The notes under the pieces: generated by a model
Seen by the model: the letters and a program-made list of their open reading frames with translations, nothing else
Told to the model about the DNA's origin: nothing
Databases searched by the model: none
Assembly: GCF_964204645.1 (NCBI RefSeq)
Contig: NC_134029.1
Coordinates: 15,184,950 to 15,248,949 of the forward strand
Source: Tubulanus polymorphus
Lineage: Eukaryota; Animalia; Nemertea
Length of the DNA: 64,000 nucleotides
Direction of reading: 5' to 3'
Translations under genes and position numbers: made by a program
Part shown: positions 3,720 through 64,000 of the stretch, piece after piece
Layout: every line of letters starts with the position of its first letter
Position numbering within the stretch: position 1 is the first letter of the stretch

Positions 3720-4544
3720 CCGGTTTCTTCCAAACGCAGAAATGCAGAAACGCAGAAATTGGTGTGTTGACTTAACGGACAATAAAGATAAATTGAATTT
3801 TACTTTATCTAGCTATACCGTGCTGTTGAAATTATGCAGACGATGTAGCCAAATTCTCGTTATGAGTCACGAATGATTTACAAATAAATCGATGAACTGA
3901 GATTTATGATTCTTCTTAAGAATTCATTCAAAACCCAAGGCTGAAGCACAAAAGAAAACGATAGTGCCGACCACGGTTTTGAAAAAATGTGTACTAGATA
4001 TTGCATACTCATAAAAAATCCAATCATATCATGATGATATGATTGGATTTTTTATGACATGAGGAAGTTGGAAGGGGGTCCAAGAGTTATGATTAACCTG
4101 CAAATGTAATACTCAGCGTCAGGAAATCATTTACAGGTAAAAAAGGAAACTCATCATATCGAAGATGTAACACTTGCTGGTTTTTGAAAGATTCGTTGAA
4201 ATGGAAAGATTGTTTCTCTCAATTAGACACTCAAATCAATTTGCGAGCGTTTCCAGCTACAGATTAACAGACAAACAATGAACGAAACTCATGGTGATAA
4301 ATAGCCCGCTGAGACAAAATTTTTTATTTTCTCAGCAGCCGTAACTAGCCTGAAAATTATAAACGAGCAAGCAGAGTGAGTGAGTTCGAATGTCAAATTC
4401 GTTTGTATGCAGCTGTAGTAATTACATGTTTGCATGCAGCTTCGGGTACTGACAACATGCAGCTCTAGTGAATCCTTACCATTGTCCGTAAAATTAACAC
4501 ACCAATTTCTGCTTTTCTGCATTTCTGCGTTTTGAAGAAACCGG
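3720..4544. mobile_element. Non-autonomous TIR element (MITE) with ~50 bp TIRs and a 7-8 bp TSD
   Basis: ccggtttcttccaaacgcagaaatgcag...ggtgtgtt and its reverse complement ending gaagaaaccgg. The direct repeat acttcct lies at 3713-3719 and 4545-4551. Confidence 0.85.
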
Positions 4545-5306
4545 ACTTCCTAAAGTGTGTAGATTGTATACATTAAGACACTTCCAACTAACTTGATTCT
4601 GAGATCGATATCGGGCACCTCTTTAATTTTGGCATCTATCATGTCACACTTCTCTTAGAGGGTGTGTTTGGTTATGGCTGAATTGAAGAAATGATCACCG
4701 GACCCTCCATGGATTGTTTAAGGCGACCGAGATGAAAAAAAATCTATAGTCTAGTGCCATCAAGTCGTAGTTAAATGACATCGCATTTTCTGGTCCAATC
4801 AGAAGTGATGAATTTCTGGCCGCATCAAACAACACCAACTCTAGGAACTCTCTATGGCTACACCAAATTCCCCTAAAAAGGTAACTTTCATGGGTTTTTG
4901 TAGTTTTGATGATTTGGTCCGCCTTAGTTTAACAACTGCATCTGCAAACTGGCATTTTCTTCTGCATGTTAAATGGAGGATTACGTTATCAGTGCTGTAA
5001 TCTATTACTTCCTTAGCATGGTCTTTGATCTGATTTTCTACCGTTACTTCCAGTGCTCTTTAAGATCAAAATTACAACAACATAATAAACATATTCAGAA
5101 ACAATAAACATTTGAATTGGTATGATTGTAGTAATTAGAAAATCAGGGGTTCAGATCAGAGGTCGAGAGGTCGACTTATCACCACTTTTAATTTTTTTCC
5201 TAATAAATTGGTGAGAGTGAACACCAAACAAAAAAAAATTGATGTTAATAAAAATCAATATTATTGTCCATATTGTAGAAAATACATTGATAAATAACAT
5301 ATATAA

Positions 5307-5504
5307 TGTAATTCATTAGGTCTTTATGTGAATATTGAATTGATTAAATCTAATCCAAATTGTTTTAATTTAAACCATGTAGAAAATGAATTAACAGAAA
5401 AAGTCAGAGATTTATTTCAAATATCCAAATCAACAGATTACGTTTATGATTTAACAACTGAAGATGGAACATTCAATTCTGGATTCCCATTAATCCTCGT
5501 AAAT
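5307..5504 (+). other. C-terminal portion of a putative intein (LAGLIDADG block H plus splicing blocks F/G)
   Basis: CNSLGLYVNIEL...CFNL (block H-like), then DYVYDLTTEDGTFNSGFPLILVN (block F VYDL, terminal Asn at 5502-5504), followed directly by Thr+1 of PolB motif C (TD). Confidence 0.75.
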
Positions 5505-5951
5505 ACTGATGCATACATATCAAAAATCAAAACAAATAACTTAACAAAAGGTTTAAAAACATTAAAACATCATTTCGATTTCAGTAATTATCCAAAAGAT
5601 CATGAATTATTTAGTAATGAAAATAAAAAGTGACCTGGTAAAAAAAGATGGATTAGGAGGTGGTAAAATGATTGAATTAGTTGGGAAAAGAAGTAAAATG
5701 TATAGTTATAGAACTAAAGATCGATAAAAAATTGAAAGGAATAACAAAGCATGTTGTTAACAAACATATAGAATTTCAAGATTGTATAAAATGTTTATAT
5801 AATTCAATTGCAATGAAACATAAAATGAATTGTTTAAGACCGGAAGACCGCGAAATGTATATTAATGAAGTTGAAAACTAGCTTAAATCCATTTGATGAA
5901 AAATGGTATATTTTGGATGATGGAATACAATCTTTACCTCATGGTTATTAA
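5505..5951 (+). pseudogene. Polinton/Maverick-type protein-primed DNA polymerase B, C-terminal fragment
   Basis: TD..I.KIKT...FDFSNYPKDHELFSNENKK*PGK...ELVGKRSKMYSY...KLKGITKHVV...FQDCIKCL...FDEKWYILDDGIQSLPHGY*, typical of pPolB C-termini. It is broken by frameshifts and stops. Confidence 0.85.
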
Positions 5952-5959
5952 TTATTCAT

Positions 5960-7420
5960 TTTTTTCATAGCTAAAGGTAATTGGTCGATAATCATGTTGA
6001 ATATAATAATCACGATTTTCTAAATTACTTAGTTCAAAACGTATTGTTCTCATTGTTTTCCTACGTGAATAATAATCATTTATGAGGTTTTATTTTTTTT
6101 AATCTAAATTTTCATCTTATTGTTTTTCTATAAAATCTTTAGGTTCTTCTATTTCATTTTTCATAATGTTTTATATTACTCCACATTTCTTCTCGTTCAA
6201 TTTGTTTCTTTTGGTTTGTTATTTCATCAAATTGAATTATAATATCGATATCTAAAAACTTTACAATCTTATTTAAAAAGCATGCATAATTAATTGAATC
6301 TTTTATATTATTATTCACACAATTATTTAATATTTTTGAGAAATTGTTTCTTTTATATTTGCCATATCTTCTCTTGTTAATTTAGGTTTTTCATAATAAT
6401 CGTTAAATGATAAATATAAATACATTTTCATTTCTTTTGTACTGGCATTTAATGGAATAATAGTTTTTACCACATCGCTTTTAGTCATTTTCCTTTTCTA
6501 TTACTTTCATTTATTTCAAGCCATTGCGTATATTCTGGTGTATAATCTTCTATAGAAAATATTTCAAAAATTCCATCTAGATATTTCAATTTTGGTTCTA
6601 AACGGAAAATTCTTGTTTTTTCATCACCCCATAATTTTTTTTTATAACCACATTCATTACAAAATATTATATAATCTTCTTGTATTAAATACTAATAAAT
6701 ACATAGTGGACATTTTTTTCTACCATATTTTGGTAATAGATGTACATTAATTTGATGGTATTTATTTACGTTATCTTTATGTTTTATTGATTTATTACGT
6801 AGATTTGAATTACTTGTTATAAAAATCAATGTACAATATTTACAATAATATTTTAAACTATTTAATATAATTTTTAAAACTAAATCAACATATTGTTTTT
6901 CTAAATTTTCAAGTTATTCTTTATTTTTTGATAGCGTTTTCACATATTTTATTTCTACTAATAGATTATTTTTTCTTTCATTAGATTCTGTTTCAAGTTT
7001 AGTAGAATTTTTGTTTAAATGTGCTTCATTCAATTGGTGATTCTCCCCATCATCTATATTTTCAGGATTAAATTTTATTTGACAATGTTTGTAGAAATGA
7101 TTTGTTATGGCATTGTTATTACAGAATAAAAAACGTATTTTCCAAATAATTTCTGGTTTAATTTCATCAAAATTACTACTATTTTCGCTACTTTCATCAT
7201 TAACCATTAATTCATTAATTTTACATTTTTCTGAATGTTTTTTAAAATAATTTTTTGAAAATCTTTCATTACAATTTGGGCAAGTTATTTTAGGGGTTTA
7301 TAATCTTCATCATGTCTTGCCGTATTACCTTTTCTTTGTAGTTCATTACAAATTTCACAACGTATCTTCTCATCCATTTATTTAGGAAAAGTTCTATCAA
7401 AATAATTTTGTGGGGTTAGA
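5960..7420 (-). pseudogene. Degenerate AT-rich virus/Polinton-like accessory ORFs with CxxC motifs
   Basis: The minus strand reads MDEKIRCEICNE...TCPNCNERFSKNYFKKHSEKC and KKCPLC. It lies next to the PolB fragment, has very high AT content and includes ORF 6914..7207. Confidence 0.45.
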
Positions 7421-9344
7421 TCTGGTTAATTATATATTGATCTGCATAGATAGATACAAGTAGTGAGATATTAAATGATTTAAACATTTTCAAGTCGAAT
7501 TATTATTCTTTTATATTGAAATATGGCAGTACTGAGATACGCAAAACTGTAGCACTGTGATACTGAGGTTAATTTATTCTTTGAATTTAATTAAAATTAT
7601 ATACGTTAATTAATTATCAACTTAATTAAAAATTTAATCGAAAAATTCGAAATAATTCATTACTTCAAAAAACGTTTTTCGAGGAAACACCGTTAATATT
7701 GATTTCGGTGTTTGAGCTAGTATATAAGGCAATTCATTTCACTTACTAGAGTGGCCTGCGGGCCTGGGCATTTTGAAAATGCATATTTGTTCACTCTCCG
7801 TGGTTCTCCTTCAGTTTCGACTTTCGGTCCTCCTTTCAAGGGTACGGGATTGGTAGGAAACACATTAGGCACGTCAAATATAATGTGTTTCTTTTCAATG
7901 ATTGAATGAGAATTGGTGAGAAATGCTCGGGGGTAAGTATCTCGTGGCGCCTTTCAATAATGGGATACTTATCCCACGAAAAATTCTGCCTCTTCGGGTT
8001 GGGTGGTTTTGCAAAAAATTATGAGAATATTTGGTAGAATATTTATAAAATAAATTTACCTCACAAACCGAAAACTCCAAATTATATATATCACGAAATG
8101 CGAGAGAGAAATATGTTGTTAATCGCTCAACAAGCACTGTATGGTAACATATGGCTCAATAATCAATAACACTCATAATACTCGATATTGCGCGTAGAGT
8201 GCGACGGATGTCTTTTTATCTCGGGCGAAGCCTGAGATGTCGTAATGAGCCCGAAAATCGCATTTTTGCCTTAAAATGCGGTTGTAACTTAGACACGCGG
8301 TCATGCTTGTTATAATATTTACGTGCAAAATGTAGCTTGACCATGCGGCTAAAATCTGTTGGAAATGGAAATTTGAATATCGCGTTCATTCCAGAGAAAT
8401 AGACGAATTCGTAGCGATTTTTAAAGAAATTTCCAGGAGCATTTTGTTTCATAAAACGGCTATAAAGGCCGTTGTACATCGTTAAATTATTGTAAAATAA
8501 TTGCTCCCCGCAGTTGGCTGATCACCCGTAGCCAATTACTGTGAGGGCATATTCGATTATACGACGCACACAAATTGGTCTTAATCCGCTAATGTGCCAT
8601 GTTGTTGCATCTAGTTTTTCATTTCCCAGTCATGGAGAGTCTTTTATGTTATTTCTGAAATTTGATAGCCACCATATCTTTTTTACTCCCCATATTATGC
8701 AAAAAAACGTACATTCAATTGATACGCTAAATCGCGGAAGATTACGCTCGCACAATCGAATAGGCCCGTTCCTCGTGTTTTGCCGCGCTGAGACGCTGTC
8801 GTTTTATTTTCGTTCGAAGAAGCTCGCGGTTTGCGTTTAGTATTCGAGGTAAGCAATAATTAATAATGTTGAGTATTGGAGATATAGTTTTTTTACGTAT
8901 GAAGAGGTAAGTGGGGCACTTTTGTTGACCGTAGAGTTTTCTTAGATTGTGCGTTGGATCGCGCGATGCCTCAATTCAATTTAATTTATTAAATCCTTTG
9001 CGGCGTGTCTAAACCACCGAACGCTTTTCAGTGGTCGATCCATTTTTACAAAATTTAAATCAACGAACATTGTTATGCCTGTTAGCCCATGTGATGCTCG
9101 TAATTACTGTAGTTTCATCGATTGATGAGGCATTCATTTCTTTTTATGGCATGAAAAGATTGGCGCATTGCCAAAATCCTTGCTTGCCAGGGTTTCACTG
9201 CTTCCCGTCGATAATACAAAGGCCTACGGAATTAAGGTATCAGTTAACCCTCATCTCAAATATCGAAAATTGATGGCGTTAGTAGTAGCTCAGCTGTCCC
9301 GGAAAAACTTGACTTTTTTCTATGGTGGTGATTTTCGGAAATAA

Positions 9345-10255: not shown

Positions 10256-13200
10256 GTAAGATATTCATATCAGATCCCATTGTTAACGCAGTCTCAACTG
10301 TTTTGTGACTTTCTCAAAATGTATCAAAAATTTAACTAATTTTTAGTTCATAAGTCCTCAAATGTTCATAAATGAACAGTTAAAAATTGTTGAAACATGT
10401 CGACTCTGCCGTAAAATCAATCTATTTACAGTCCGGAATTTGGGATAATATTGGGCTTCAGAGAAAATAATGCCCCCGAGGTCTTAAAATTTACAGAAAA
10501 TATTACGTAAGTGATTCACGCGCAGCGCGCGATAGGCGCACAATAGAAATCTGAGCCGCGCGTTCTTTGAGTGTCACCAATTAAGAGGTGAAAATTGACC
10601 TTGGGAGGAATATTCCTCCCAAAGTCAATCGATGGAAACTTGACCAAGGGGTTCGATATTCAAAGAATTGACTTTAGGAGGAATATTCACACGAAGAGAA
10701 TTTGACCTTCAGGTCTGATATTCAAAGTATTGACTTCGGGAGGAATGTTCCTCCCTATGTCAAACGAAGGAAAATGGACCTGGTCTGATATTCGAAATAT
10801 TGTCATATGTCAACTGAAGGAAAATGAACCCGAGTCTTAGATTCAAAGTATATTGATTTAGCGAGGAATTTTTCCTCCCACCACTAAACGCTATAACCTG
10901 AATTTTTAGAAAGATAGGTATTGGTGTTTTGGGTGTAATTAGTTTTTTTAAAGCCATAAAGCCAGGTAGATTTATGAATTTCGAGTGAAACGATACACAG
11001 TGTTCGAGGTAATGAGACGGAATGAGACATACATACAATTTAAGAAAAATAAATAGATTTTGTATTTTCTTTGTCCAACAGTAAATTGCTGTAACTATGT
11101 TGACAATCAATTGTAATCGGATTGTAATCAGGCCCTTCTCGATAAACATGTAGAGGGGAAATCGTAATTAAAACACGTGCATAACATAGAAATTAAGTTT
11201 TGATTATACAGGGAATATATTAGGACTGCTTACAAATTTTCACAAGACTGCGATAAATCTAAATAGCTTAATACGGCACGAGTTTAGCTAATTTACGTTT
11301 AAAGGTTCATTTTCAGAGTCAATGGACGTAATTTGATAAACGCATTCTTTAAATGGAAATTCTATAGTAATCGATACAAATCATTTATATTAAATCATTT
11401 TAATTAAGAATGGTCATTCAAGGATTAGAGATCATTATGAAGCTGATACATTTCATTCGTGTGGATTCTTCTCTCATTACTAGTGTTAATAGGAGATTCG
11501 CGTGTCACGCATGATAAAAATAAAAATATTCGAGTCGTATTTCTTTCATTTACGGTCGCAAATTAGCCATTGTCCTAGTGAGCATTATTCTCATTTATAC
11601 GTAAAAGTGTATTCGGTATGAGGGTTTGTTTCTTTCTTCACTCCTTTATATAAAATTCAGAAATAGGAGTTAATAAGGAGGTTTTTACTCCTAACCGAAC
11701 TCAGTTCCCATTCAGTTCAGTTCAAGTTTATATGCATGGGGATCTATGATATATGGGAAAATACAATCCAGCCTACTAGCCACTGAACGTTAGCACTCAC
11801 AAAACGTCAGGAATTTGCAAAGAGAAAACATTATGTTACAAAAATATCGGATAAAATTCATTCTAAACATGCGTTACTAAGCCCAGAACTCCAGATATCG
11901 GGATGATATGTCTAAGGCAGATTTCTCCCTTTGTGACACAACCATTTAATTACTCATGTGACCATTATTATACCTCTCACAATCAAGCTTAAAAGATTAA
12001 GTGGCCTACGGTATGAATGCTTTAGTATTGATTCATATACGAAGCATTATTGTCTTAACATTGAAATTAGTTGATAGAATGCATCTTACTTTTTCTCGAC
12101 TTAAAAATTATTATTTGATTGACATACCACGGATTCGGAAATTAGTTGATTAAAAGCACAAACGCATATAGTCGCTATCCTGGTAATTAAATCGACTTAA
12201 AAATCGATTGATTGTTATTGAAATGAAGAAAGTTGAAAAAGACAATCAACGTTTGTATGAGATATATGTTTCGTAGTTCGTGATATTCAGCATACACCAA
12301 TGTCCAGTAAAATTTAACAATTTTTAAAATTTTACAATCCAACGTTTATCCAAAGATTGAAATACTTCAATAATACTAAACTAATACTAAAAGTTGTCGC
12401 ACTGGTAAAATAATATTTCAAATTTCAAATAGTATTTCAAAGATATTTCAAATAAAAAGTTTCAATAATTTATCGCATCGCACAGAAAAATCCGTGAAAT
12501 ACATTTTTGATTTACGGGTGCCTCATAGGCCTGTCATCGCTTGTACATTGTCATAATGAATTCTCTTTAATTGAGCAATATTTACTTAGGACTTAATCAC
12601 TGACTTTCTATAGATAATGAGCTATACAAAACCTAACCAGATAAAATTCAGTGGCTTGTTATTGTCAGCTTGCTTGTATACCAAGCTTCGCTAACATAAA
12701 CGATGATGTTGCCCTTTGTACTGAAATCTTGACGTATCAAACCATAGATAAATAAAACGGCAAAAATTGCTTCAATCGTTTTTACGCATGAGGAATCGAT
12801 CTTGATTTGAAAGGCACTTGTTGACGTGTGGGGAAAAATTGAAAATTTTTCACAGAAATCCTTTAAAACGATTCCAGTTATTCTGGACTTAATTTTGCAA
12901 TGCAAACGAAAACATACCGGCGGCAGCAAATCATAAGCTCTTTAATGGGTATTCTTATGGGATTTTTACCGGGGAATTTCGACCATTACCGCGTAGACGA
13001 GCCGGTAACAAAAACCTTTGGAAACAACAAATTATTCGCTTGTATGAATTAACGCCACTTTTGATAGGACTGCCTAATCAAATATTTCAATCATGAAGAT
13101 GGCGAGTTGACTGAGCCAGAGGCGCACAGTCAATAGTAGATATAAAGGAACTACGGACATAATGCGTTTTCCTTAAAAGTATTTCATCCATAGAGATTTA

Positions 13201-13580
13201 ATACAACTTGTCAACAGTTCAATTTCTATAATGCGATGACCTATGTATGAAAATATGTTTTCTGTTTGTTTTACGCGTGATACCGGGGGATAATACCTTC
13301 GCCCAAACGTTCTACACACACATGATACCATTTAATGAATCCGAAATATATCCAGGCCTAGAGTTCATGCTGAAGGATGAAGACTTGGAATATCCTAGCA
13401 ATATAATTTTTAGAAAGAGATTTTTGTCCACTGAAGTTTAGAATAGCACGCCGGACTCTTTGTTAGGATCGACCACAGTTCTATAGTGAATTGATTACAA
13501 GTAGTTAATTTAGCAAAACAAAGTAAATTGTTCATTACAGTGCATTGCTAAGGGTTAGCGGTAAAAAACCCCAGAATGTT

Positions 13581-13704
13581 GGAAAAATGGCCAAGGAAAA
13601 AATGGACAGGAAAGAATGGCCAAGGAAAAAATGGCCAAGGTAATTTGTCTAGGAAAAAAATGGCCAAGAAAAAAATGGCCACGGAAAAAAAGGCCAAGGA
13701 AAAT
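13581..13704 (+). repeat. Minisatellite (GGAAAAAATGGCCAA)n, foldback/MULE-type subterminal array; reverse copy at ~20068-20189
   Basis: About 7 visible units of ~15 bp. Confidence 0.85.
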
Positions 13705-14982
13705 TTATGAGAACTACTGCCAATGTTAATAAAACATTAAGCTTTCAATTAAATGACATCACATATTTTTCATGGGGCTTAAAACAATTAAAATCGGTAT
13801 TAGTGAGTTCAAAAATGTGATGAACTTACATTTCATTTCATTGCATATAATGAATAGGCCTATATCAAGAACTATAATAAAATAACTGAGTCAATAAAAA
13901 AATAACATAATAAAATAACTGAGTCAATAATTCAAAACATTTAAGTAAGCGAGTAAAAATCCCCTCGGTAAAAATCCCCAATTCTTCAAAGTAGGTAATC
14001 CCCTCCCTTTGAAGGGATTATAAGTAGATACAATCTTAAGGTCAATTAATTCGTATTATTGATACGTATATCAAAATTTATTCATATTTTACTGCCGAAC
14101 ACCATAAGGATATCAATATGCTCATACAAACTATGCTATTTAAATTAAAACCTACTACAAATTAACGTTTCATTGATACAAAATTAGTACATATACATGT
14201 AGTTATTGCACAGCTTAGTAAAGGGGTTCATCGCGCATTTCAAATATATTACACTAGCTTGAATCTAAAATATTTAATATCAAAAGTACGTTATTTCTAA
14301 TAATTCATGGCATCGCACAGCTGAAATATACCACAAGTTTACAAGAGTCCGCAGTTCAAAAATATACCAGTTCGAATCTTAAGATATTACGAATAAAAGT
14401 TTATTACTCTTATTAATTCTTACAATTTATTTTATCCGTAAGAATTTATCGCAACGAAAGATTTCATTTAAAAGTTTAAACATATTTCAGTCACATTGCA
14501 AATTCGAGAAACATCGTGCTTTGAAATGTTCTTGACAATCACCAAGTATGAATATTTGGGGGATTTTTACCCAGGGTATGTTTACCATGTTTACCTAGGG
14601 TTTAGATTTTTTAGATTTCTACATAGGAAATCTTTTCGAGGGAATCTTTTTTGAACGGATGAAGGTATTTTGAGGGAGGTATTCTGGATATGGGATTTTT
14701 AATTGTCATATCTTGCTACGGTAGATACTTTTCTCATTGATTATTCGCTACGATACTTATTACATATCACACAAATCCGCATATACGCTAGAATCCATAC
14801 TGTTAGCAAAAATCACTAAGAATCGCAATTTGCTCATTTTGTGATATTTTTGAAATCGTCCAATTTTATTGCAGAGATTCCCCGACATATCACGAGTAAT
14901 GAAACAGATATCAGTATAAACGTAGATTTTTCTTTTATTTTGAAATCCGTAGAGCAAACATTGTAACCTAATGTTATTGAAC

Positions 14983-18800: not shown

Positions 18801-21037
18801 GATGTATAAATGCAGGGAGGGTTGGGAGCTTTATGTTCAATAACATTAGGTTCCAATGTTTGCTCTATGGATTTCAAAATAAAAGAAAAATCCACGTTTA
18901 AACGTGATATCTGTTTCATTACTCGTGATATATCGGGGAATCTCTGCAATGAAATTGGACGATTTCAAAAATATTACAAAATGAGCAAATTGCGATTCTT
19001 AGGGATTTTTGCTAAGAGTATTGATTCTAGCGTATACGCGGATTTGTGTGATATGTAATAAGTATCGTAGCGAATAATCAAAGTATCTACCGTAGCTAGA
19101 TATGACAATTGAAAATCCCCCAGAATATCTCCTTCAAAATACCTTCATCCGTTCAAAAAAGATCACCTGGTAAAGATTTCCTATGTAGAAATCTAAAAAA
19201 TCTAAACCCTAGGTAAACATACCCTGGGTAAAAATCCCCCAAATATTCATATTTTGTGATTGTCAAGAACATGTCAAAGCACGATGTTTCTCGAATTTGC
19301 AATGAGACTGAAATATGTTTGAACTTTTAAATGAAATCTTTCGTTGCGATAAATTCTTACGGATAAAATAAATTGTAAGAATTAATAAGAGTAATAAACT
19401 TTTATTTGTAATATCTTAAGATTCGAACTGGAATATTTTTTAATTTCAGCTGTGCGATGCCATGAATTATTAGAAATAACGTACTTTTGATATTAAATAT
19501 TTTAGATTCAAGCTAGTGTAATATATTTGAAATGTGCGATGAACCCCTTTACTGAGCTGTGCAATAACTACATGTATATGTACTAATTTAGTATCAATGA
19601 AACGTTAATTTGTAGTATGTTTTAATTTAAATAGCATAGTTTGTATGGGCATATTGACATCCTTACGGTGTTCGTCAGTAGAATATGAATAAATTGGATA
19701 TACGTATCAATAATACGAATTAATTGACTTATACTTATACTTATAATCCCTTCAAAGGGAGGGGATTACCTAATTTGAAGAATTGGGGATTTTTACCGAG
19801 GAGATTTTTACTCGCTTACTTAGATGTTTTGAATTATTGACTTAATTATTTTATTAAGTTTAAGTTAATCACTAGTAAGTTTATTCATTGACCACTTGCA
19901 TGATAGTTCTTGATATATTCATTATATGCAATGAAATGAAATGTAAGTTCATCACATTTCTGAACTCATTAATACCGATTTTAATTGATTTAAGCCCCAT
20001 AAGAAATATGTGATGTCATTATATTGAAAGCTTTATGTTTTATTAACATTGGCAGTAGTTCTCATAAATTTTCCTTGGCCATTTCTTCCGTGGCCATTTT
20101 TTCCTTGGCCATTTTTTCCTAGACAAATTACCTTGGCCATTTTTTCCTTGGCCATTCTTTCCTGGCCATTTTTCCTTGGCCATTTTTCCAACATTCTGGG
20201 GTTTTTTACAACTAACCCTTAGCAATGCACTGTAATGAACAATTTACTTTGTTTTGCTAAATTAACTACTTGTAATCAATTCACTATAGAACTGTGGTCG
20301 ATCCTAACAAAGAGTCCGGCGTGCTATTCTAAACTTCAGTGGACAAAAATCTCTTTCTAAAAATTATATTGCTAAGATATTCTTAGTCTTCATCCTTCAG
20401 CATGAACTCTAGGCCTGGATATATTTCGGATTCATTTAATGGTATCATGTGTGTGTAGAACGTTTGGGCGAAGGTATTATCCCCCTGGATCACGCGTAAA
20501 ACAAACAGAAAACATATTTTCATACATAGGTCATCGCATTATAGAAATTGAACTGTTGACAAGTTGTATTAAATCTCTATAGATGAAACACTTTTAAGGA
20601 AAATGCATTATGTTTGTTGTTTCTATATAACTACTATCGACTGTGCGCCTCGGGCTCAGTCAACTCGCCATCTTCATGATTGAAATATTTGATTAGGCAG
20701 TCCTATCAAAAGTGGCGTTAATTCATACAAGCGAATAATTTGTTGTTTCTAAAGGTTTTTGTTACCGGCTCGTCTACACGGTAATGGTCGAAATTCCCCG
20801 GTAAAAATCCCCTAAGAATACCAATTAACGAGCTTATGATTTGCTGCCGCTGGTATGTTATCGTTTGTATTGCAAAATTAAGTCCAAAATAACTGGAATC
20901 CTTTAAAAGGATTTCTGTGAAAATTTTCAATTTTTCCCCACACGTCAACAAGTGCCTTTCAAATCAAGATCGATTCCTCATGCGTAAAAACGATTGAAGC
21001 AATTTTTGCAGTTTAATTTATTTATGGTTTGATACGT

Positions 21038-21074
21038 CAGGGAGGTGGGAGTGAATTCACTCCCACCTCCCCTG
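21038..21074. mobile_element. 37-bp palindromic insertion with TSD (excision-footprint-like)
   Basis: gatacgt|cagggaggtgggagtgaattcactcccacctcccctg|gatacgt. It is absent at the homologous sites 12730 and 38497. Confidence 0.75.
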
Positions 21075-23107
21075 GATACGTCAAGATTTCAGTTAAAAGG
21101 GCAACATCATCGCTTATGTTAGCGAAGCTTGGTATACAAGCAAGCTGACAATAACAAGCCACTGAATTTTATCGGTTTAGGCTTTGTATAGCTCATTATC
21201 TATAGAAAGTCAGTGATTAAGTCCTAAGTAAATATTGCTCAATTAAAGAGAATTCATTATGACAATGTACAAGCGATGACAGGCCTATGAGGCACCCGAA
21301 AATCAAAAATGTATTTCACGGATTCTGCTGTGCGATGCGATAAATTATTGAAACTTTTTATTTGAAATATCTTTGAAATACTATTTGAAATTTGAAATAT
21401 TATTTTACCTGTGCGATAACTTTTAGTATTAGTGTAGTATTAATGAAGTATTTCAATCTTTGGATAAACGTTGGAAAAATGGCAGGGGGAAAATTGCCGC
21501 TAAATAAACATTAGAATTTGCAAGTTTTGTAGTAACTTTGAATTGTTAAATTTTACTGGACATTGGTGTATGCTGAATATCACGAACAACGAAACATATA
21601 TCTCATAAAAACGTTGATTGTCTTTTTCAACTTTCATCATTTCAATAACAATCAATCGATTTTTAAGTCGATTTAATTACCAGGATAGCGATTATATGCG
21701 TTTGTGCTTTTAATCAACTAGTTTCCGAATCCGTGGTATGTCGATCAAATAATAATTTTTAAGTCGAGAAAAAGTAAGATGCATTCTATCAACTAATTTC
21801 AATGTAAAGACTATAATGCTTCGTATATGAATCAATACTAAAGCATTCATACCACAGGCCACTTAATCTTAAGCTTGATTGTGAGAGGTGTTAAAACATG
21901 ATGGTCAAATGAGTAATTAAATGGTTGTGTCACAAAGGGAGAAATCTGCCTTAGACATAACATCCCGATATCTGGAGTTCTGGGCTTAGTAACGCATGTT
22001 TAGAATGAATTTTATCCGATATTTTTATAACATAATGTTTTCTCTCTGCAAATTCCTGACGTTTTCTGGGTGCTAACGTTCAGTGGCTAGTAGGCTGGAT
22101 TGTATTTTCCCTTATTTCATAGATATCCATGCATATAAACTTGAACTGAACTGAATGGGAACTGAGTTCGGTTAGGAGTAAAAACCTCCTTATCAACTCC
22201 TATTTCTGAATTGTATATAAAGGAGTGAAGAAAGAAACAAACCCTCATACCGAATACACTTTTACGTATAAATGAGAATAATGCTCACTAGGACAATGGC
22301 TAATTTGCAACCGTAAATGAAAGAAATACGACTCGAATAATTTTTTTTTTATCATGCGTGACACGCGAATCTCCTATTAACACTAGTAATGAGAGAAGAA
22401 TCCACACGAATGAAATGTATCAGCTTCATAATGATCTTTAATCCTCGAATGACCATTCTTAATTAACACAAAACACTTAATATAAATGATTTATATCGAT
22501 TACTATAGAATTTCCATTTAAAGAATGCATGTATCAAATTACGTCCATTGACTCTGAAAATGAACCTTTAAACCCGTAAATTAGCTAAACTCGTGCCGTT
22601 AAGCTATTTAGATTTATCGCAGTCTTGTGAAAATTTGTAACCAGTCCTAATATATTCCCTGTATAATCAAAACTTAATTTCTATGTTATGCACGTGTTTT
22701 AATTACGATTTTAACTACAAGTTTATCGGGAAGGGCCTGATTACAATCTGATTACAATTGATTGTCAACAAAGTTATAGCAATTTACTGTTAGACAAAGA
22801 AAATACAAAATCTATTTAGTTTTCTAAAATTGTATGTAGGCCTATGTCTCATACCGTCTCATTACCTCGAACACTGTGTATCGTATCACCCGAAATTCAT
22901 AAATCTACCGGCTTTAAGGCTTAAAAAAACTAATTACACCCAAAACACCTATCTTTCTAAAATTTCAGGTTATAGCGTTTAGTGGTGGGAGGAAAAATTC
23001 CTCCCTAAATCAATATACTTTGAATCTAAGACTCGGGTTCATTTTCCTTCAGTTGACAAATGACAATATTTCGAATATCAGACCAGGTCCATTTTCCTTC
23101 GTTTGAC

Positions 23108-23139
23108 CATGGACGTATAAACTAGATTATACGTCCATG
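23108..23139. mobile_element. 32-bp palindromic insertion with 7-bp TSD (excision-footprint-like)
   Basis: gtttgac|catggacgtataa-actaga-ttatacgtccatg|gtttgac. It is absent at the homologous site ~10759. Confidence 0.8.
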
Positions 23140-23625
23140 GTTTGACATAGGGAGGAACAATCCTCCCGACGTCGATACTTTGAATATCAGACCTGAAGGT
23201 CAAATTCTCTTCGTTTGACCTTGGAAGGAATATTCCTCCCAAAGTCAATTCTTTGAATATCGGACCCCATGGTCAAGTTTCCATCGATTGACATTGGGAG
23301 GAATATTCCTCCCGCAGTCAATTTCCACAATAGCGGTCCTCTTAATGGGTGGCTCAGATTTCTATTGTGCGCCTATCGCGCGCTGCCCGTGAATCACTTA
23401 CGTAATCTTTTCTGTAAATGTGAAGACCTCGGGGGCATTATGTTCTCTAAAGCCCAATATTATCCCAAATTCCGGACTGTTAATAGGTTGATTTTACGGC
23501 AGAGTCGACATGTTTCAACAATTTTTAACTGTTCATGTATGAATATTTGAGGACTTATGAACTAAAAATTAGTTAAATTTTTGATACATTTTGAGAAAGT
23601 CACAAAACATTTGAGACTGCGTTAA

Positions 23626-24607
23626 TAATGAAATAAGTAATATTGATTGTTAATATCAATATCAAGTGTGAATTTGCAGTTGTAAAATAATTGATTTGAT
23701 TAACAGTATAATTTGATCTAGACCTCCCAGCGTCAATCAATGAAGAAAAAATTTAACTAGTCAAAGACTCAAGATCAAGTAAAGAAAAAGGAAGATGCAT
23801 TCTAACAACTGATTGCGACGTGAAGACTATATTAGGCTTATTATTAGAACCTGCACTACAGCTATTCAACTTTCTACAAATCATTCGTCGCAGACCCTCA
23901 AATACCGTGTACATTTTCACTCAAATTGCCTAAATATGTCTGGTGTCGTCGCTGTAGTATACTACTTATTAAAACAATTATTACACCAATATAATTAATA
24001 TATATACATCATTCTAAAAGCTCAGGTTTTTAGCGTTTAGCGGTTTGGAAGAACATTCATCCCAAAGTCTATATTTCGAATAACAGACCAGGTCCAGTTT
24101 CCTTCGTTTGACATTCGGAGGAACATTCCTCCCGAAGACGATACTTTGAATATCAGACCTGAAGGTCAAATTCTCTTCGTTTGACCTTGGGAGGAATATT
24201 CCTCCCAAAGTCAATTGTTAAAATATCGGACCCCATGGTCAAGTTTTCATCGATTGACATTGGGAGGAATATTCCTCCCAAGGTCAATTTTCACAATAGC
24301 GGTCCTCTTAATTGGTGACACTCAAAGAACGCGCGGCTCAGATTTCTATTGTGCGCCTTTCGCGCGCTGCGCGTGAATCACTTACGTAATCTTTTCTGTA
24401 AATGTGAAGACCTCGGGGGCATTATGTTCTCTAAAGCCCAATATTATCCCAAATTCCGGACTGTTAACAGGTTGATTTTACGGCAGAGTCGACATGTTTC
24501 AACAATTTTTAACTGTTCATTTATGAATATTTGAGGACTTATGCAGTAAAAATTAGTTAAATTTTTGATACATTTTGAGAAAGTCATAAAACATTTGAGT
24601 ATGCGTT
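23626..24607 (+). repeat. Direct copy of ~17206-18045, extended by a second inverted copy of the 10283-10440 terminus
   Basis: ORFs 23813/24014/24349 duplicate 17394/17605/17931. The segment ends gtcataaaacatttgagtatgcgtt. Confidence 0.85.
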
Positions 24608-34815: not shown

Positions 34816-35639
34816 AGTGTGAAGTAGCCACAGTGGAATTTAGAAAATTCCAATACAGCCATTCTTTTCGATGAACCCACATCAATGTGCCTGAGACAAC
34901 GACCACAATCGGCGTAAAACCACCGGAACAGTTACGTAGGCCACATATAATACCTTGTCAATGGCTCGTCGAGGGAGGAAGGTCTAGCTCGTTTTGTGCA
35001 GGTTGTGGCAGTCTGCCCCTACACTTTATCAGGAGAACCAAAAATGTTTAATTCCAGTCATAGATAAGATTATATGGTCCATGCCTAATTTTGTGTAGGT
35101 GCAATACCGGAAGAATAAAAGATTCCAATTGCCAGATTGAATCCTTCGCATGATTTTTGCCACTCAAATCTAAGAAATAAACAAACAAGTATGTGCGTTA
35201 ATGGTGGTGGTACGTTGTTGTTAAATTGTTGAATGAAGCCCCTATATACAACGATGCTAACGATGCTGCATAAATGTTATTGTTTTTGCTTGGCTATCGT
35301 GATTTGATGGAAAAGACCATCAAAATTGTTGAAATAATAAATGGTGTCAGGAAAACACAGTAATTGATTATCAATGTAATGATCCATTTCACAAAAGCAC
35401 AATTGTTAGTATTAACAGATGTTTAACGAAATACTTACCCGTAAAAATAAACATAGCCATGCACAGCCAAAGCAAGCACGGTTGGAATAAACGCCAGAAA
35501 TAACGACTTGGAGACCTCGTAGAATGGCGTCCTTGACAGGAAGTTCCCCAAGAGAAACTAAGCCCGGTTTGGAAGTTATTTTGTACCAAAGGAAGACAGT
35601 TTTATATGCGATAACAAAATGGCCTTCCCTGAAGCGAAA

Positions 35640-35980
35640 GTCTATAATAATCAATTGAATTAACATAGAATAAAAAATATTTAATAACAGATATTGAAAT
35701 AATATCAACTAGATATGGAAATAAATTTGCAGCACATTTAGAATATAAAGGTTTAAGAAATAATCATATATCTAGAACATATTTACCAGATAAATTTAAT
35801 AGATTATCAATTGACGATATTGATGATTTAAAATCAGGAATATTTTATTTAATTTATAAAGGTAAAGATGAAAAAAGTCACCATGATATAGATTTTAAAT
35901 GATTTTAAATAGAAAATAAATGGATACTAACAACAAGAAATATCAATGCCCAATATGTAAAATAAATATAGATAAATCAG
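35640..35980 (+). pseudogene. Polinton/virus-like small gene fragments; homologs at ~61240-61460 and ~63480-63640
   Basis: ITDIEIISTRYGNKFAAHLEYKG...TYLPDKFNRL...YLIYKGKD, followed by MDTNNKKYQCPICK. The three dispersed copies are visibly alignable. Confidence 0.5.
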
Positions 35981-36265
35981 CCGCGAAAACATTCAGCCGC
36001 AGTTTTCAAACAGTAACTTTAACAATTACCCATTTTCCTCATCAAATCGTATTACCGATACACAGGAAATTAACTGCTCTAGATTTTAAAGCACTGTCGA
36101 GCCGTAAACATCGACGAATCGACGTGTGTCTCTACATACTTCCGGGGATCAGCTGTGAGTTTCTCCGCATCATGAGAATCAAATCAAGTACAAATGAATT
36201 TATTACTACCAGTGTTTTGGCCTTAGGCTTCGATAAGTTAGTTTAAAAGTACCTATTTTTCTTTA

Positions 36266-38825
36266 GGCGATAGGCGCACAATAGAAATCTGAGCCGCGCG
36301 TTCTTTGAGTGTCACCAATTAAGAGGACTGCTATTGTGAAAATTGACTTTGGGAGGAATATTCCTCCCAAAGTCAATCGATGGAAACTTGATCAAGGGGT
36401 TCGATATTCAAACAATTGAATTTGGGAGGAATATTCCTCCCAAGGTCAAACGAAAGAAAATGGACCTGGTCTGATATTCGAAATATTGTCAAATGTCAAC
36501 TGAAGGAAAATGGACCTGAATCTTAGATTCAAAGTAAATTGATTTAAGGAGGAATATTCCTCCCACCACTAAACGCTATAACCTGAATTTTTAGAAAGAG
36601 AGGTATTGGTGTTTTGGGTATAATTTGATTTTTATTTTTTAAACTACCCAATAAAGCCAGGTAGATTCATGAATTTCGAGTGATACGACACACAGTGTTC
36701 GTGGTAATGAGACGGTATGAGACATACATTATATTTTAGAAAACTGAATAGATTTAGCATTTTCTTTGTCTAACAGCAAATTGCTGTAACTTTCTCGACA
36801 ATCAATTGTAATCAGATTGTAATCAGGCGCTTCTCGATAAACATGTAGAGGGGAAATCGTAATTAAAACACGTGCATAACATAGAAATTAAGTTTTGATT
36901 ATACAGGGAATATAAAAGGACTGCTTACAAATTCACAAGACAGCTGCGATAAATCTAAATAGCTAAATATGGCACGAGTTTAGCTAATTTACGGGTTTAA
37001 AGGTTCATTTTCTGAATCAATGGACGACGTAATTTGATAAATGTATCTTTAAATGGAAATTCTATAGTAATCGATGCAAATCATTTATATTAAGTGTTTT
37101 GTATTGATTAAAAATCGTCATTCAAGGATTAAAGATCATTATGAAGCAGATACATTTCATTCGTGTGGATTCTTCTCTCATTACTAGCGTTAATAGGAGA
37201 TTCGCGTGTCACGCATGATGAAAATAAAAATATTCGAGTCGTATTTCTTTCATTAAAAGGTCGCAAATTAGCCATTTTCCGAGTGTGCATTATTCTCATT
37301 TATACGTAAAAGCGTATTCGGTATGAGGGTTTGTTTCTTTCTTCACTCCTTTATAAACAATTCAGAAATAAGAGTTAATAAGGCGGTTTTTACTCCTAAC
37401 CGAACTCAGTTCCCATACAGTTCAGTTCAAGTTTATATGCATGGGGATCTATGAAATAAGGGGAAATACAATCCAGCCTACTAGCCACTGAACGTTAGCA
37501 CCCAGAAAACGTCAGGAATTTGCAGAGAGAAAACATTATGTTACAAAAATATCGGATAAAATTCATTCCATACGTGCGTTACTAAGCCCAGAACTCCAGA
37601 TATCGGGATGATATGTCTAAGGCAGATTCCTCCCTTTGTGACACAACCATTTAATTACTCATGTGACCATTATGTTTAAACACCTCTCACAATCAAGCTT
37701 AAGATTAAGTAGCCTGCGGTATGAAAGCTTTAGTATTGATTCATATACGAAGCATTATAGTCTTTACATTGAAATTAGTTGATAGAATGCATCTTACTTT
37801 TTCTCGACTCAAACATTATTTTTTGATTGACATACCACGGATTCGGAAACTAGTTGATTAACTAAGCACAAACGCATATAGTCGCTATACTAGTAATTAA
37901 ATCGACTTAAAAATCGATTGATTGTTATTGAAATCAAGAAAGATGAAAAAGACAATCAACGTTTGTATGAGATATATGTTTCGTGTTTCGCGATATTCAG
38001 CATACACCAATGTCCAGTAAAATTTAACAATTCAAAGTTATTACAAAACTTGCAAATTCTGATATTTATTTAGCTGCAATTTTCCCCTAGCCATTTTTCC
38101 GACGTTTATCCAAAGATTGAAATACTTCATTAATACTTAACTAATACTAAAAGTTATCGCATTGGTAAAATAATATTTCAAATTTCAAATAATATTTCAA
38201 AGATATTTCAAATTAAAAGTTCAAATAATTTATCGTATCGCACAGCGAAATCCGTGAAATACATTTTTGATTTACGGGTGCCTCATAGGCCCGTCATCGC
38301 TTGTACATTGTTCATCGACTAATAAATTCTCTTTAATTGAGCAACACTTACTTAGGATTTAATCACTGACTTTCTATAGATAATGAGCTATTCAAAGCCT
38401 AACCCGATAAAATTCAGTGGCTTGTTTTTGTCGGTTAGCTTGTATACCAAGCTTCGCTAACATAAACGATGATGCTGCCCTTTTTACTGAAGTCTTGACG
38501 TATCAAACCATAGATAAATAAAACTGAAAAATTGCTACAATCGGTTTTGCGCATGAGTAATCTATATTGATTTGAAAGGCACTAGTTGACGTGTGGGGAA
38601 ACATGAATATTTTCACAGAAATCCATTTAAAACGATTCCAGTTATTTTGGACTTAACTTTGCAATACAAACGAAAACATGCCAGCGGTAGCAAATCATAA
38701 GCTCTTTAGTGGGTATTCTTAGGGGATCTTTACCGGGGAATTTCGACCATTACCGTGTAGACGAGCCGGTAACAAAAAACCTTTGGAAACAACAAATTAT
38801 TCGCTTGTATGAATTTACGCCACTA
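36266..38825 (+). repeat. Third copy of the composite repeat (homologous to ~10530-13060)
   Basis: Starts gcgataggcgcacaatagaaatctgagcc and is colinear to ...tcgcttgtatgaatt. Confidence 0.9.
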
Positions 38826-41667: not shown

Positions 41668-42479
41668 AATTAAAATCAAATCTTTCACATTGATAATCAA
41701 TGGTCTTGGTAAGTTTTCTCTATAGCCCTATTATGACTTTGCTAGAGTATTTTCCCTATAATCGTTGTTGAATTAATCCTTGGTTGGGACATAAAGCTAA
41801 TTGGCTATGACAGCTTATCTGGCTTGAAGCAATAACCTCAATAAACTACACAATAACAAACAGCTGAATAGTGAGGTGGTGGGAGTGGCTTATTCTCTAC
41901 ACTACTGAAAATCTCAAGTGTTTGCCACCCGGTTAACTAGCCTCCGTACTCCTCGGCCTTTAATAAATATTTTACTCAAGTTTTCTTCACAGGGGTTTGG
42001 CGATGGGCTTGGATTTTATTTCCGGGTTGTTGATAATCTCGCGAGAATGGCGCTAAATATGAACTGCGAATAAATTCAAAATATCACGGAAATACCTTGT
42101 GTTTATATTGTTTATTTATCCGCTATAAAGTTTCGATAAACAATTGGTCGTTAAGAATCATTATCAGACGGTCGTCACGCTTTACTATATAAAATCACAA
42201 GGGATGAAACGCCTTCAGACTAGTCCAACCCCTAAATCCACTTGCATTCAGTCTCATGAGAACTAACTTAACACGTTAAAACCTTCACCGGCCTCCTACT
42301 CAATTTTTTGAATAAATGTAAAACTTATGGCAGAATTTATGGTTGATTCCTCGAATTTTGAATCCCAAAGAATAATTTTTGAATTACGCAGTAAGATGAC
42401 ACTTGAATAGCCGGTATTCAAATTTTCCAATCAATGTGGGAGGTGTATGGGTCTACATGCGTTTCACAAACGAACGTCC

Positions 42480-44650
42480 TCTTTTAAAGTTTCTTTCTAG
42501 TTTTATTTAGTCAACAATTTCTAAATCATGATGACCGTCTTCATTTTTTCCATAATAGATTATTTTAAATCCTTTTAAATCTTTTAATTCCTCTTTATTC
42601 AATGAAACCCATCTACAGGTAAAAATACTTTAAATTCTCGTGTTGTACTAACATTTGCTGATATTTTATCTCCATATTTAGTTTTTATCTTTTCTAATTT
42701 TAATATTTTATCTTCAATTTCTTTTGTAACATCGACTAACTTTTTTATTTCAATTGTTGCTAAGACTGCTTTTCTTTTCTTTTCGCCCATTTATTAGGAA
42801 AAAAATATTAGTGGTGATGAGTGATGTGCCGACCTCTCGGCCTCTGATCTGAAAGCCCACTTTTCCAATTAATAAAATGAATGTAAATCCTTTTAGAGTG
42901 ACCGATGAGGGTAAGCACCTAGCAGCTATCCTCGATAACAACGGACCTCTTCAGGGTGGCAATTTTATGGGGGCATACAATATTCACTTGCCTAAACGCA
43001 GTGACGGGCAGAAACTGTGAAGTAGTAAGAAATTGGTAGCTCTATCCTTGAAATGAATCATGTTTTTTATGCGTATACGTTCATCAATCCAACCTTTGAC
43101 AGATTATCGTTGAATTCAACCAAAGGGGCTCGTATCGGTAAAACCGATAATCAGTTAATCCAGTCCCTGTGAATTCAACAACTGTTTTGTAAAAGATGAG
43201 GCAAGTAACTGAAAACTGTCAGGGTCACCGGAAGCCGTTTTGTATTTTTAGCGTTGGTTGGCGTCTATGACGTCACGCCAATGCTAGAAAAATGGATCGA
43301 AAGTCATAGTCGAAAAAAGCGCCCACAGTTCTCATTTACATAGTAACATCAAGCTGTAACTCCTTTCGTTGAAACAGCTGAAAATGACTCAAAATAATGC
43401 TTGAATTATTCCCTACAAAATAGCGTCACCGGATGTCTGATTAATTGGCTCAAAAAGTTATTCTATCGCATTTTTCTCGTTAGTTATGTGGTAGATGAGA
43501 GGGGGTTAAGCGATCGGTAGTGATATGTCCGCATTGACATTGGCAGTAAAGAATGGGGAATGGCCTCTTTTGAATAGGAAAATATAAATCTATGTAACCC
43601 CGGTATATAAATATCAAAGTCTTTACATATCACTGTTATTCCTCCTATCAGAAGCAATGAGATTAATTGGGATTAATTCTCTGCGGCAGAATACATATTT
43701 CTAGAGCAATCGAGTGGGCCTACTCATGACTGAAACCCGTATAGGAATGTTATGTGAAACTAAAGTTAAAACCATTTGATGCTGACACGGAATATCAAAT
43801 GGTAAACTAAGACCCAACCAAGATACGATATCACCAATAAAGATAGATTGTTATATTTAATTTTACCACAGTTGCATTGAATTCCAATATCTTTATATAT
43901 ATTATTATTAACTGATTCACATTGGATTCCAATATTTGATGAATTTTCATTGTAGATAATTTGTTTATTATCAAAATCAAAATGATATAATTGTCTTTTT
44001 TCAATTCTTAAGTTAATCAAATCATTGTAATCTTTAGAAAGTATCAAATCATCATTTCTTTCATTGAAAGGAGTTTGAAGAATATTCATTATGTTTTCAT
44101 CTAAAGTTCCTTTATAATTTAAAACTGTATTAAATATTTTTGGATTTAATTTTAGCACCATTATCAAGAGTATCTACTAGTTCAGTAATTAAATGTGTTT
44201 CATTTGATAATATTTGATTAATCATAGTAATATTATCGATTTTATATTGTCTCCCATACACTAAAGTTGATGCTGAGATATAATTTTTAATGTTAAACTG
44301 TGAAAATGATTTATTGGTTTCATTTATTTCGATTTTGAATTTAGGTTCTTCTTCTTCTTTCTTCATTTTTATAACAAATCTTTTATTAAAATAAATCTAA
44401 CTCATTCAAATATAAATATTCAATGTTAAAATATGAATTATTTCACTCACACTTTACTAACACTTTTCATGTTTAGAAATAAGAATCTAACGCATATAAA
44501 TATAAATATTCAATGTTTTAAATATGAATTATTTCACTCACACTTTACTCACACTTTTATGTTTAAAAATTGATTTTTTATTATTCGAAATCTATATTTG
44601 ATCTTATTTATCTAGATTATTATGCTAACACTTTACTCACACTTTTAAAA
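42480..44650 (-). other. Patchwork containing AT-rich virus/Polinton-like ORF fragments (42599, 43766, 44130) and a ~120 bp tandem duplication at 44400-44640
   Basis: Composition is similar to the PolB region, and 42790-42853 is homologous (inverted) to 5150-5206 next to the PolB fragment. Confidence 0.4.
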
Positions 44651-59854: not shown

Positions 59855-60108
59855 TATACCAAAGGATGGCGGTTATAGCATGCTTCTTTGCTTTATTTAA
59901 ATTCATGCATCTTCAACTCCAAATTCAATTCACTTGAACTAGTAGCGAATTAAAATGAAGTGATCGGCTATTAGTACACGTTTGTATATTTTCCGTTTTG
60001 TATGATTTATCGGTTTTTGACGTAAAGAGAACTCGTTCCTTTTAGCAAACATCCTGGATCCTTATCGAAATCACAGGATTGGAATGATTGGATATATTTG
60101 CTTTTTAG

Positions 60109-60234
60109 ATATCGATGAATGTCTAGCTATTCCTCGCCTATGTATAGCGGGAAAGTGTATTAACACAGTTGGTTCATACAGATGTGTATGTGAGCAAGGA
60201 CAGGTTAAGGATCCTATAGCTGGGGGCTGCAGAG
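60109..60234 (+). CDS. FBN: Fibrillin exon: calcium-binding EGF 1 (126 nt, phase 1-1)
   Basis: Acceptor gctttttag and donor gtaata. Translation [42 protein letters not shown] has the cbEGF consensus. Confidence 0.95.
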
Positions 60235-63300: not shown

Positions 63301-63319
63301 ATTTCTCTCGTCACGGGTA

Positions 63320-63860
63320 TGGTATATTTAAGTGGTAATAAGATAATATAAAACTACCTAAGATTTTTTGTTTTTCAATTAGATATAAACAAAGATGATT
63401 TTATAAATTTGTTAGAAACAAAATTATAAAATTATAAAATATTATAAATATATCTGAAATTATAAATATTTAGAAAAATATTATCAAATGTTACAAAAGG
63501 TTTAAGTAATAATCACTAATTTAGAACATTTTTACCAGATAGATTTTGAATGATTTTTAATAAAAATTTTCTATGATAAGTGGATACTAACAACAAGAAA
63601 AATCATAGCCCATATGTAAAATTAATATAGATAAATCACAAAAATTTAGACATCTAAAACACATTTAGAAATAAATTGAAATTAGAATATAATAATGAAA
63701 AATGTAATCAATCATTTAGTGAAAAAATATACTATGATCAACATTTAAAATCTAAAATTCATATTAGAAATTTAAATAAGAATATTTTAGTTGAAGATTA
63801 TTTCGATGAAAATAATGATAAAAAACAAGAGACAATAAGGAAAATAAAAAATAAATTGAA
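63320..63860 (+). pseudogene. AT-rich virus/Polinton-like fragments including a C2H2-like remnant
   Basis: Homology to 35700-35980. ORF 63676 contains EKCNQSFSEKIYYDQHLKSKIH. Confidence 0.4.
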
Positions 63861-64000
63861 CAAGGTGCCCACGGGCACTGTTAGTTTTAGCGCAGAAGTT
63901 AGTGAATTGAAGTTGGAGTTAATCATATGCACCATAATAGACGATACATTGGTTTAGTAAGGTGCTCTATCAGCTTATACTTGACATAAAAGGAAATGCA

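Follow-up and report, generated by a model that had tools for sequence, protein, structure and literature searches.

The locus considered here, positions 5307 to 5951 of a 64,000-nucleotide stretch of contig NC_134029.1 (the whole stretch is called the window), raises the question of why the last part of a Polinton-type protein-primed family B DNA polymerase (PolB) should begin in the middle of its catalytic motif C, at Thr-Asp, and be preceded there by a peptide that ends in asparagine. The original prediction, drawn from the letters alone, took this peptide for the C-terminal end of an intein with a homing-endonuclease remnant. On the evidence set out below, the locus is probably the dead remnant of what is likely a Polinton (Maverick/adintovirus), lying in a likely animal genome, whose protein-primed PolB carried a LAGLIDADG intein at motif C; the history and mechanism proposed further on are part of this reading.

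The motif C fragment as an intein tail

The plus-strand open frame of 108 codons at 5307-5633 is present and reads as had been quoted. The final residue of the intein is Asn66 (5502-5504) and the Thr-Asp of the polymerase starts at 5505, so that the junction lies exactly at the splice site of an intein inserted in motif C, as proposed. A search of the fragment alone against Pfam, NCBIfam and the PDB sequences returned nothing significant (one irrelevant PDB match, E 0.11), and in this respect the profile check suggested for it came out blank, but a purpose-built profile hidden Markov model (HMM), made solely from 110 giant-virus motif C inteins (360 positions), matched the 66-residue tail at E 5.4e-11 and 40.6 bits over model positions 290-360. 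The tail was the top match and the only significant one among 2076 six-frame segments of the window (runner-up E 1.3), and the best of 1000 shuffles reached 8.2 bits. With a second HMM, from five Polinton-type inteins, it scored 70.5 bits, against 8.8 bits for the best of 1000 shuffles. The tail is 56% identical to the protein P0001 and 53% to P0002; across the intein–extein junction P0001 is 65% identical, without a gap over the whole fragment, and P0002 54%. The homing-endonuclease remnant is also real, as the first 21 or so residues align within the Pfam LAGLIDADG_3 part of both proteins. On the polymerase side, the first 42 extein residues are 90% identical to P0003 and 83% to P0005, both without an intein, which bears out the assignment to a Polinton-type protein-primed PolB. 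The parts of the remnant are as follows.

5125..5214, plus strand: left end of what remains of the mobile element, with an approximate boundary.
5236..5295, plus strand: polymerase N-terminal stub with a CxxC zinc-finger start (match 5250-5294), no longer an open gene.
5295..5299, no strand: large internal deletion junction, with loose contig ends behind 5295 and before 5299.
5299..5369, plus strand: tail of the second LAGLIDADG homing-endonuclease domain, in ungapped alignment with the Pfam LAGLIDADG_3 regions of P0001 and P0002.
5370..5504, plus strand: intein C-terminal splicing region, with the VYDL of block F at 5442-5453 and, at 5502-5504, the Asn that closes block G.
5505..5951, plus strand: C-extein, comprising the motif C Thr+1 and the C-terminal 150 or so codons of a Polinton-type protein-primed PolB, in four tblastn pieces to the C-terminus.
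5952..7530, minus strand: AT-rich (22% G+C) rest of the element, in which zinc-finger frames have decayed (the longest lies at 6914-7297), with repeat-level contig depth to about 7525.

The remnant sits in an AT-rich island of 22-25% G+C, as against 37-39% in the flanks. In its left end region, 97 nt are 77% identical to 42783-42878 on the opposite strand, and contig depth climbs from 34 to more than 1500 within the bin 5102-5202; the partner of a long inverted repeat was sought in 4500-8500 with no convincing pair, and the remnant may lack one end. The N-terminal stub shares 9 of 15 residues with residues 12-26 of P0005 (E 0.03, weak alone), and similar stubs occur in the window at 35932-35979 and at 63609-63870, the latter corresponding to P0005 residues 18-114 (E 1e-9). 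The surviving intein end, predicted to have about 65 residues and to be covered by the translation from 5307, starts slightly earlier, at about 5299, after the deletion junction. Judging by the size of the relatives, the deletion would have removed most of the polymerase and about 280 intein residues. The polymerase stop stands at 5949-5951, and upstream of it are one in-frame stop and several frame changes. Because the N-terminal half of the intein is deleted and the extein carries a stop and frameshifts, the window copy is dead. More decayed pieces of the same element family, mutually 74-87% alike, lie at 35550-36050, 42450-42900, 60550-61600 and 63250-63870, and a small gene of about 85 codons, of no known family, stands directly upstream of the polymerase start in these pieces.

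The window was compared with contigs, and contigs only, from three sequencing runs (X1, X2 and X3; two samples, one study). Six X1 contigs diverge from it behind 5295, and contigs also diverge before 5299. Records of 151 nt from X2 and X3 (depth 16.5 and 7.7) cover 5257-5407 with no differences; because these records span the junction, the deletion is genuine, and its depth is like that of a single copy. Run X1, which may be the source of the window, holds the intein tail in highly repeated form: single contigs reach a depth of 3644 at place 5338 and of 3175 at place 5462, compared with 30-35 in the flank. Such depth does not give the number of copies, and free virus may contribute to it. Contigs of 747 nt and 1425 nt connect the remnant to its flanks. 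In two other records the letters differ from the window at first and match it only beginning at 5503 and 5502, respectively, which is where empty-site copies would begin matching. A junction made by chance from a Polinton polymerase and a stray piece of giant-virus DNA, or produced by faulty assembly, would agree with the rearrangement of this copy at 5295-5299 and with the lack of a bridging contig among those listed. However, P0001 and P0002 align straight through the junction, which coincides with the splice site to the residue, and the tail groups with these two and with Polinton-type, not giant-virus, inteins; the complete carriers described next largely refute this explanation, which we consider highly improbable.

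Complete carriers and empty-site relatives

If the fragment is the tail of an intein, relatives with the whole insert should exist, and the first homologue search with the fragment already gave four matches among 282 candidates (P0001-P0004). P0001 (242 aa) has Pfam LAGLIDADG_3, and P0002 (1693 aa) has DNA_pol_B_2, Intein_splicing and LAGLIDADG_3, its intein occupying residues 1184-1537 (354 residues) with the junctions YGD/S...N/TDS (slashes mark the splice points). Full-length relatives had been expected to show YxD and then a Ser-initiated block A, which is the arrangement found. P0003, P0004 and P0005 have an uninterrupted YFDTDS, that is, an empty site. Searching with the P0002 insert gave 710 matches, and among the 120 listed, five have Polinton-type exteins and the rest are giant-virus-type PolB, including that of Mimivirus. 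A profile search of proteins of 59-830 residues gave 687 matches; 113 proteins among the 120 listed were new, namely 28 with a Polinton-type extein and the intein, six with an empty site, 71 with giant-virus exteins and eight without an extein call. A search of 50% representatives added one Polinton-type carrier (P0224) among 133 new proteins, a low yield that says little on range, since carriers are probably hidden in clusters with empty representatives. Polinton-type carriers amount to at least 35 protein clusters (90% identity) and the locus L002; the N-terminal junction is seen in 30 of the 35 clusters, the C-terminal one in 15 and both in 13, and some carrier fragments may be pieces of one element.

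The carrier inteins have 333-354 residues and sit at YxD/TD(S), with Ser1, a terminal Asn, Thr+1 and two LAGLIDADG motifs. In the set of complete sequences checked (20, from the 13 clusters and seven further members), Ser1, VYD, the terminal Asn, Thr+1 and both LAGLIDADG motifs are present in every one, and the block B pattern matches in 18, the remaining two reading TEYH and TDH, the latter shorter by one residue. Both the Pfam and the TIGR01445 cut-offs are passed by P0006. The carriers also hold an Endonuclease_7 domain or, in the case of P0011, what we take to be a VSR-like motif. The protein-primed family PF03175 was detected in P0002, P0006, P0011 and P0134 and, at the thresholds used, was not detected in P0003, P0004, P0015 and P0016, which align at 40-57% with PF03175 polymerases; P0102, P0118 and P0124, flagged for PF03175 but also for PF00136, were counted as giant-virus type. 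An AlphaFold2 model of the P0002 region from seven sequences had a mean confidence score (pLDDT) of 63.8, and Foldseek placed endonuclease-bearing inteins first among its matches (7qsu, E 9.5e-12; PI-SceI; PI-PfuI), with a TM-score of only 0.40. By their residues and domains, the inserts of the relatives are canonical class 1 inteins with a LAGLIDADG endonuclease, for which splicing and cleavage are predicted, and their YxD/TD(S) site, together with a closer likeness to pol-c inteins than to those of another polymerase site, assigns them to the pol-c allele.

The penultimate His is usual in inteins, though not obligatory. In the window the residue is Val, and its absence had been offered as a link to Mimivirus; this link fails, as His stands there in 17 of the 20 complete carriers (Lys in two and Ser in one; Lys in Mimivirus P0076). 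A special resemblance to Mimivirus was therefore rejected, Mimivirus being one among many relatives at a similar distance (39% to P0002).

In intact relatives, the precursor would be translated with the intein splitting the Asp-Thr-Asp of motif C, and Ser1, the block B His, the block F Asp, the terminal Asn and Thr+1 would then excise the intein and restore YxD-TD; without splicing the polymerase would have no active site. Since it would work only after splicing, the splicing residues would be kept under selection.

Inteins of related type were also met outside polymerases. P0319 has, at residues 267-620, a same-family intein of 354 residues with the junctions GGD/S...N/TDT inside an ADP-ribosylglycohydrolase, a non-polymerase site that mimics motif C, and P0173 and P0269 have related inteins in a non-PolB host, presumably a type II topoisomerase-like protein, at a DAD/.../DG motif.

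Origin of the intein and signs of mobility

Separate intein and extein trees, as had been recommended, were built, and the intein trees agree with the HMM match on kinship with giant-virus PolB inteins. Three trees put 8 of 8, 9 of 9 and 20 of 21 Polinton-type inteins into one group (support 99 by FastTree, 99 and 100, respectively), and in a careful tree 9 of 10 form one clade (100/99) nested among giant-virus motif C inteins, the latter forming one clade in none of 200 bootstrap trees. The careful tree was rooted on five inteins from another polymerase site; near-duplicate cluster members were left out of the trees, and in one run giant-virus inteins more than 50% alike or outside 320-400 residues were dropped, which kept 45 of 191, plus Mimivirus. 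Giant-virus and Polinton-type inteins are 37-43% identical, while their exteins do not align at all. The nesting points to a transfer from giant virus to Polinton: a single passage of a motif C intein from the PolB of a giant virus (Nucleocytoviricota) may have founded the clade, and the intein would then mostly have travelled with three polymerase sub-lineages, with at least one jump into an unalignable class (P0011). P0307 combines a Polinton-type extein with an intein whose C-terminus is giant-virus-like, and lies outside the main Polinton clade in three trees; a second independent capture is not claimed for it, as a single clade was not rejected by the approximately unbiased (AU) test (p 0.93, in comparison with a quick tree from a poor search).

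As to movement after the capture, the freed endonuclease would cut the empty motif C sites of sister copies, either where elements co-infect a cell or between copies in the chromosomes, and repair with a filled copy as template would transfer the intein with its flanks. Homing with co-conversion leaves differences clustered round the insertion site. The P0006 cluster counts 136 members, which lie on ENA contigs of between 57 kb and 1.0 Mb, and the 15 members listed comprise seven filled copies, six empty copies and two fragments, with N-exteins 95-99.5% identical. Fixed differences between filled and empty copies occur in 10 of 1191 extein columns, all from -7 to +44 relative to the site and six within 10 residues of it (Fisher p 2e-9, for copies that are not independent); within those 10 residues filled copies are invariant and empty ones vary at six places. 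This flank tract would fit homing with co-conversion, though one recombination could give the same. In a tree of N-exteins (25 filled and 13 empty, with 12 site-adjacent residues removed and P0339, which has no start motif, excluded), the filled or empty label changes six times, at least three of which are forced by strong branches. The inteins of P0002 and P0011 are 46% identical and their exteins barely align, so that a jump between polymerase classes is needed.

The carriers could instead hold a real splicing intein that is an old passenger, with one entry followed by inheritance and occasional loss, no current homing, and mixtures produced by recombination between element variants. The intein subgroups do largely mirror the three extein subgroups, many carriers are fragmentary or frameshifted, and the single flank tract calls for one event only. 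Nevertheless, both LAGLIDADG acidic motifs persist in all of the complete carriers across inteins only 41-47% identical, none of the Polinton-type rows examined has a mini-intein, filled alleles occur side by side with empty ones at an extein identity of 98-99%, and P0011 does not fit inheritance within one polymerase class, for which reasons we regard a mere passenger as unlikely. That the intein is still homing among animal Polinton copies of one nuclear genome, and that its capture records a co-infection by Polinton and giant virus, goes further than the reading of a dead Polinton with a motif C intein, and we advance it tentatively, as possible rather than probable.

Carrier element, host and published systems

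Integrase, capsid, ATPase and protease families gave no Pfam match in 18 read-through frames of three short, decayed remnants in the window, and since neither these genes nor a pair of terminal repeats were found, the label Polinton rests on the polymerase family. The remnant is a multicopy insertion in a eukaryotic nuclear genome, as indicated by the contigs joining it to its flanks, its repeat-level depth and the other stubs of its family elsewhere in the window. A calcium-binding epidermal growth factor (EGF) exon at 60108-60233 (EGF_CA, E 4e-11) has AG and GT at its ends and may be fibrillin-like, and the window also holds Harbinger transposase and Myb genes and an rva_4 integrase core; from this content the host is likely an animal. 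The EGF exon is single, with phase-1 type ends, and a pattern search found no second such exon in the window. The carrier might still be no true animal Polinton, but a polymerase-only or other protein-primed element, or one of a non-animal eukaryote, and the missing virion and integrase genes and terminal repeats, as well as the provenance of carriers, largely ENA, JGI and Logan records, would suit this. Against it stand the exon with its splice ends, the Harbinger genes and rva_4 in the same window, the 747-nt and 1425-nt contigs that tie the remnant to these surroundings, the nearest Atlas clusters of P0006, which are eukaryotic polymerases, most commonly of Arthropoda or Mollusca (score 0.83-0.84, a lead only), and the label of P0297, a bin of Candidatus Thiodiazotropha 'ex Ctena', a clam symbiont, for a sequence that is likely clam DNA. 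We judge such a carrier or host to be quite unlikely. P0393, P0397 and P0297 are Polinton-type polymerases filed as bacterial (Bartonella sp., Candidatus Thiodiazotropha) and are likely host DNA.

Several points weigh against the reading of a dead animal Polinton with a motif C intein of giant-virus descent. Among the contigs listed, none bridges the intein–extein junction by 31 bases on each side, and no complete intein was seen in the source organism, in a comparison that covered the intein part inside the window. Many carriers are fragments, the L002 intein is frameshifted and L002 holds the polymerase alone, and no carrier was seen in a Polinton gene context; one bacterial-bin label is the only host label among the carriers. 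Five scans of viral contigs (with P0001, P0002, P0006, P0015 and P0003) and two of genome contigs gave no Polinton-type locus. In the intein tree, support is weak at the deep nodes and the bootstrap was not settled (0.972), the giant-virus rows were chosen by likeness to the query, and no archaeal rows, pol-c ones included, were present. The P0006 copies are not independent, and their flank tract could stem from one event. Viral contigs scanned with the query A1 gave one giant-virus locus only, a metagenome scan with P0002 and a scan of phage records gave nothing, and a metagenome scan with A1 gave, in the best 80 of 151 loci, one Polinton-type, 49 giant-virus-type and 30 others, 31 of the 81 scanned loci in all being without an extein call.

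Among known systems, the closest for the intein is that of the Mimivirus PolB (P0076), which, in the text available, defines the pol-c allele (Ogata et al. 2005, PMC549080). It shares with the Polinton-type inteins the YxD/TDS site, Ser1, the terminal Asn, Thr+1, a length of about 350 residues, LAGLIDADG motifs and 37-43% identity, but it resides in an RNA-primed PolB (PF00136) with unalignable exteins, in a virus of protist cells and in a gene that is not a multicopy nuclear insertion, and the Polinton-type inteins form their own clade. In eukaryotic nuclear DNA, the main text of PMC10710043 describes inteins of Anaeramoeba and, on nuclear scaffolds of Klebsormidium, Tetrabaena and a labyrinthulomycete, giant-virus-like DNA polymerases that contain inteins, and proposes virus-mediated spread; these are likewise virus-borne polymerase inteins in nuclear genomes, but neither animals nor Polintons are involved ('animal', 'metazoa' and 'polinton' occur 0 times in that main text), whereas the carrier here is high-copy and protein-primed, with filled and empty alleles. 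Nuclease domains inside Polinton polymerases are known as HNH and VSR inserts (Jeong et al. 2023, PMC10748475), and it has been suggested, in the portion of the text available, that such inserts 'result from intein invasions' (Krupovic et al. 2024, PMC11071308). No splicing domain is described for them in the main text of PMC10748475, where 'intein', 'hint' and 'LAGLIDADG' occur 0 times; in the present carriers, by contrast, a complete Hint and LAGLIDADG intein splits the catalytic motif itself. With Polintons, Mavericks and adintoviruses, as treated in the main texts of PMC8502044 and PMC8097293, the carriers share a protein-primed PolB (PF03175), AT-richness and multicopy, mostly decayed nuclear copies, but neither an integrase nor capsid genes nor termini were observed in this case, and the Alpha and Beta PolB labels given to the carriers are provisional.

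The word 'intein' occurs 0 times in those two main texts and 0 times in the available text of PMC11131425, and inteins are mentioned only in general in that of PMC12220804 and PMC3671162. Eukaryotic inteins are placed only in fungi, certain protists, plastids and giant viruses, insect-infecting Iridoviridae included, with none in Polintons in the portion available (PMC5784728), and inteins are said in the corresponding portion of PMC8529194 to be absent from metazoan genomes. Our literature search found no paper on a splicing-domain intein in a Polinton polymerase, and as supplements, Repbase and InBase lay outside it, earlier annotation is possible. What appears to be new is the host class, a protein-primed Polinton-type polymerase likely in animals, for an intein allele that is known. 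Complete inteins in such polymerases would qualify the statement on metazoan absence with regard to virus-like elements, not cellular genes. They would also show that an intein has passed from RNA-primed polymerases into protein-primed ones, two kinds whose sequences share little beyond the motif C site, a jump for which homing between distant genes was thought implausible as an ordinary route, in the available part of Ogata et al. (2005, PMC549080). A multicopy nuclear family in which filled and empty alleles are 99% identical would offer a natural system for the study of homing, the intein could serve as a marker of contact between Polintons and giant viruses, and natural Ser-type inteins may be of interest as protein-splicing tools.

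Elsewhere in the window, a repeat of about 4.8 kb is present as an inverted pair at 90% identity (10278-14982 and 18835-23630) with a third, partial copy at 36341-38824 and short tandem arrays at its end. A decayed Penelope-like retroelement tail without a Pfam match lies at 61900-62900, between two of the element pieces and in the intron beside the EGF exon, and carries what we take to be a GIY-YIG-like motif.
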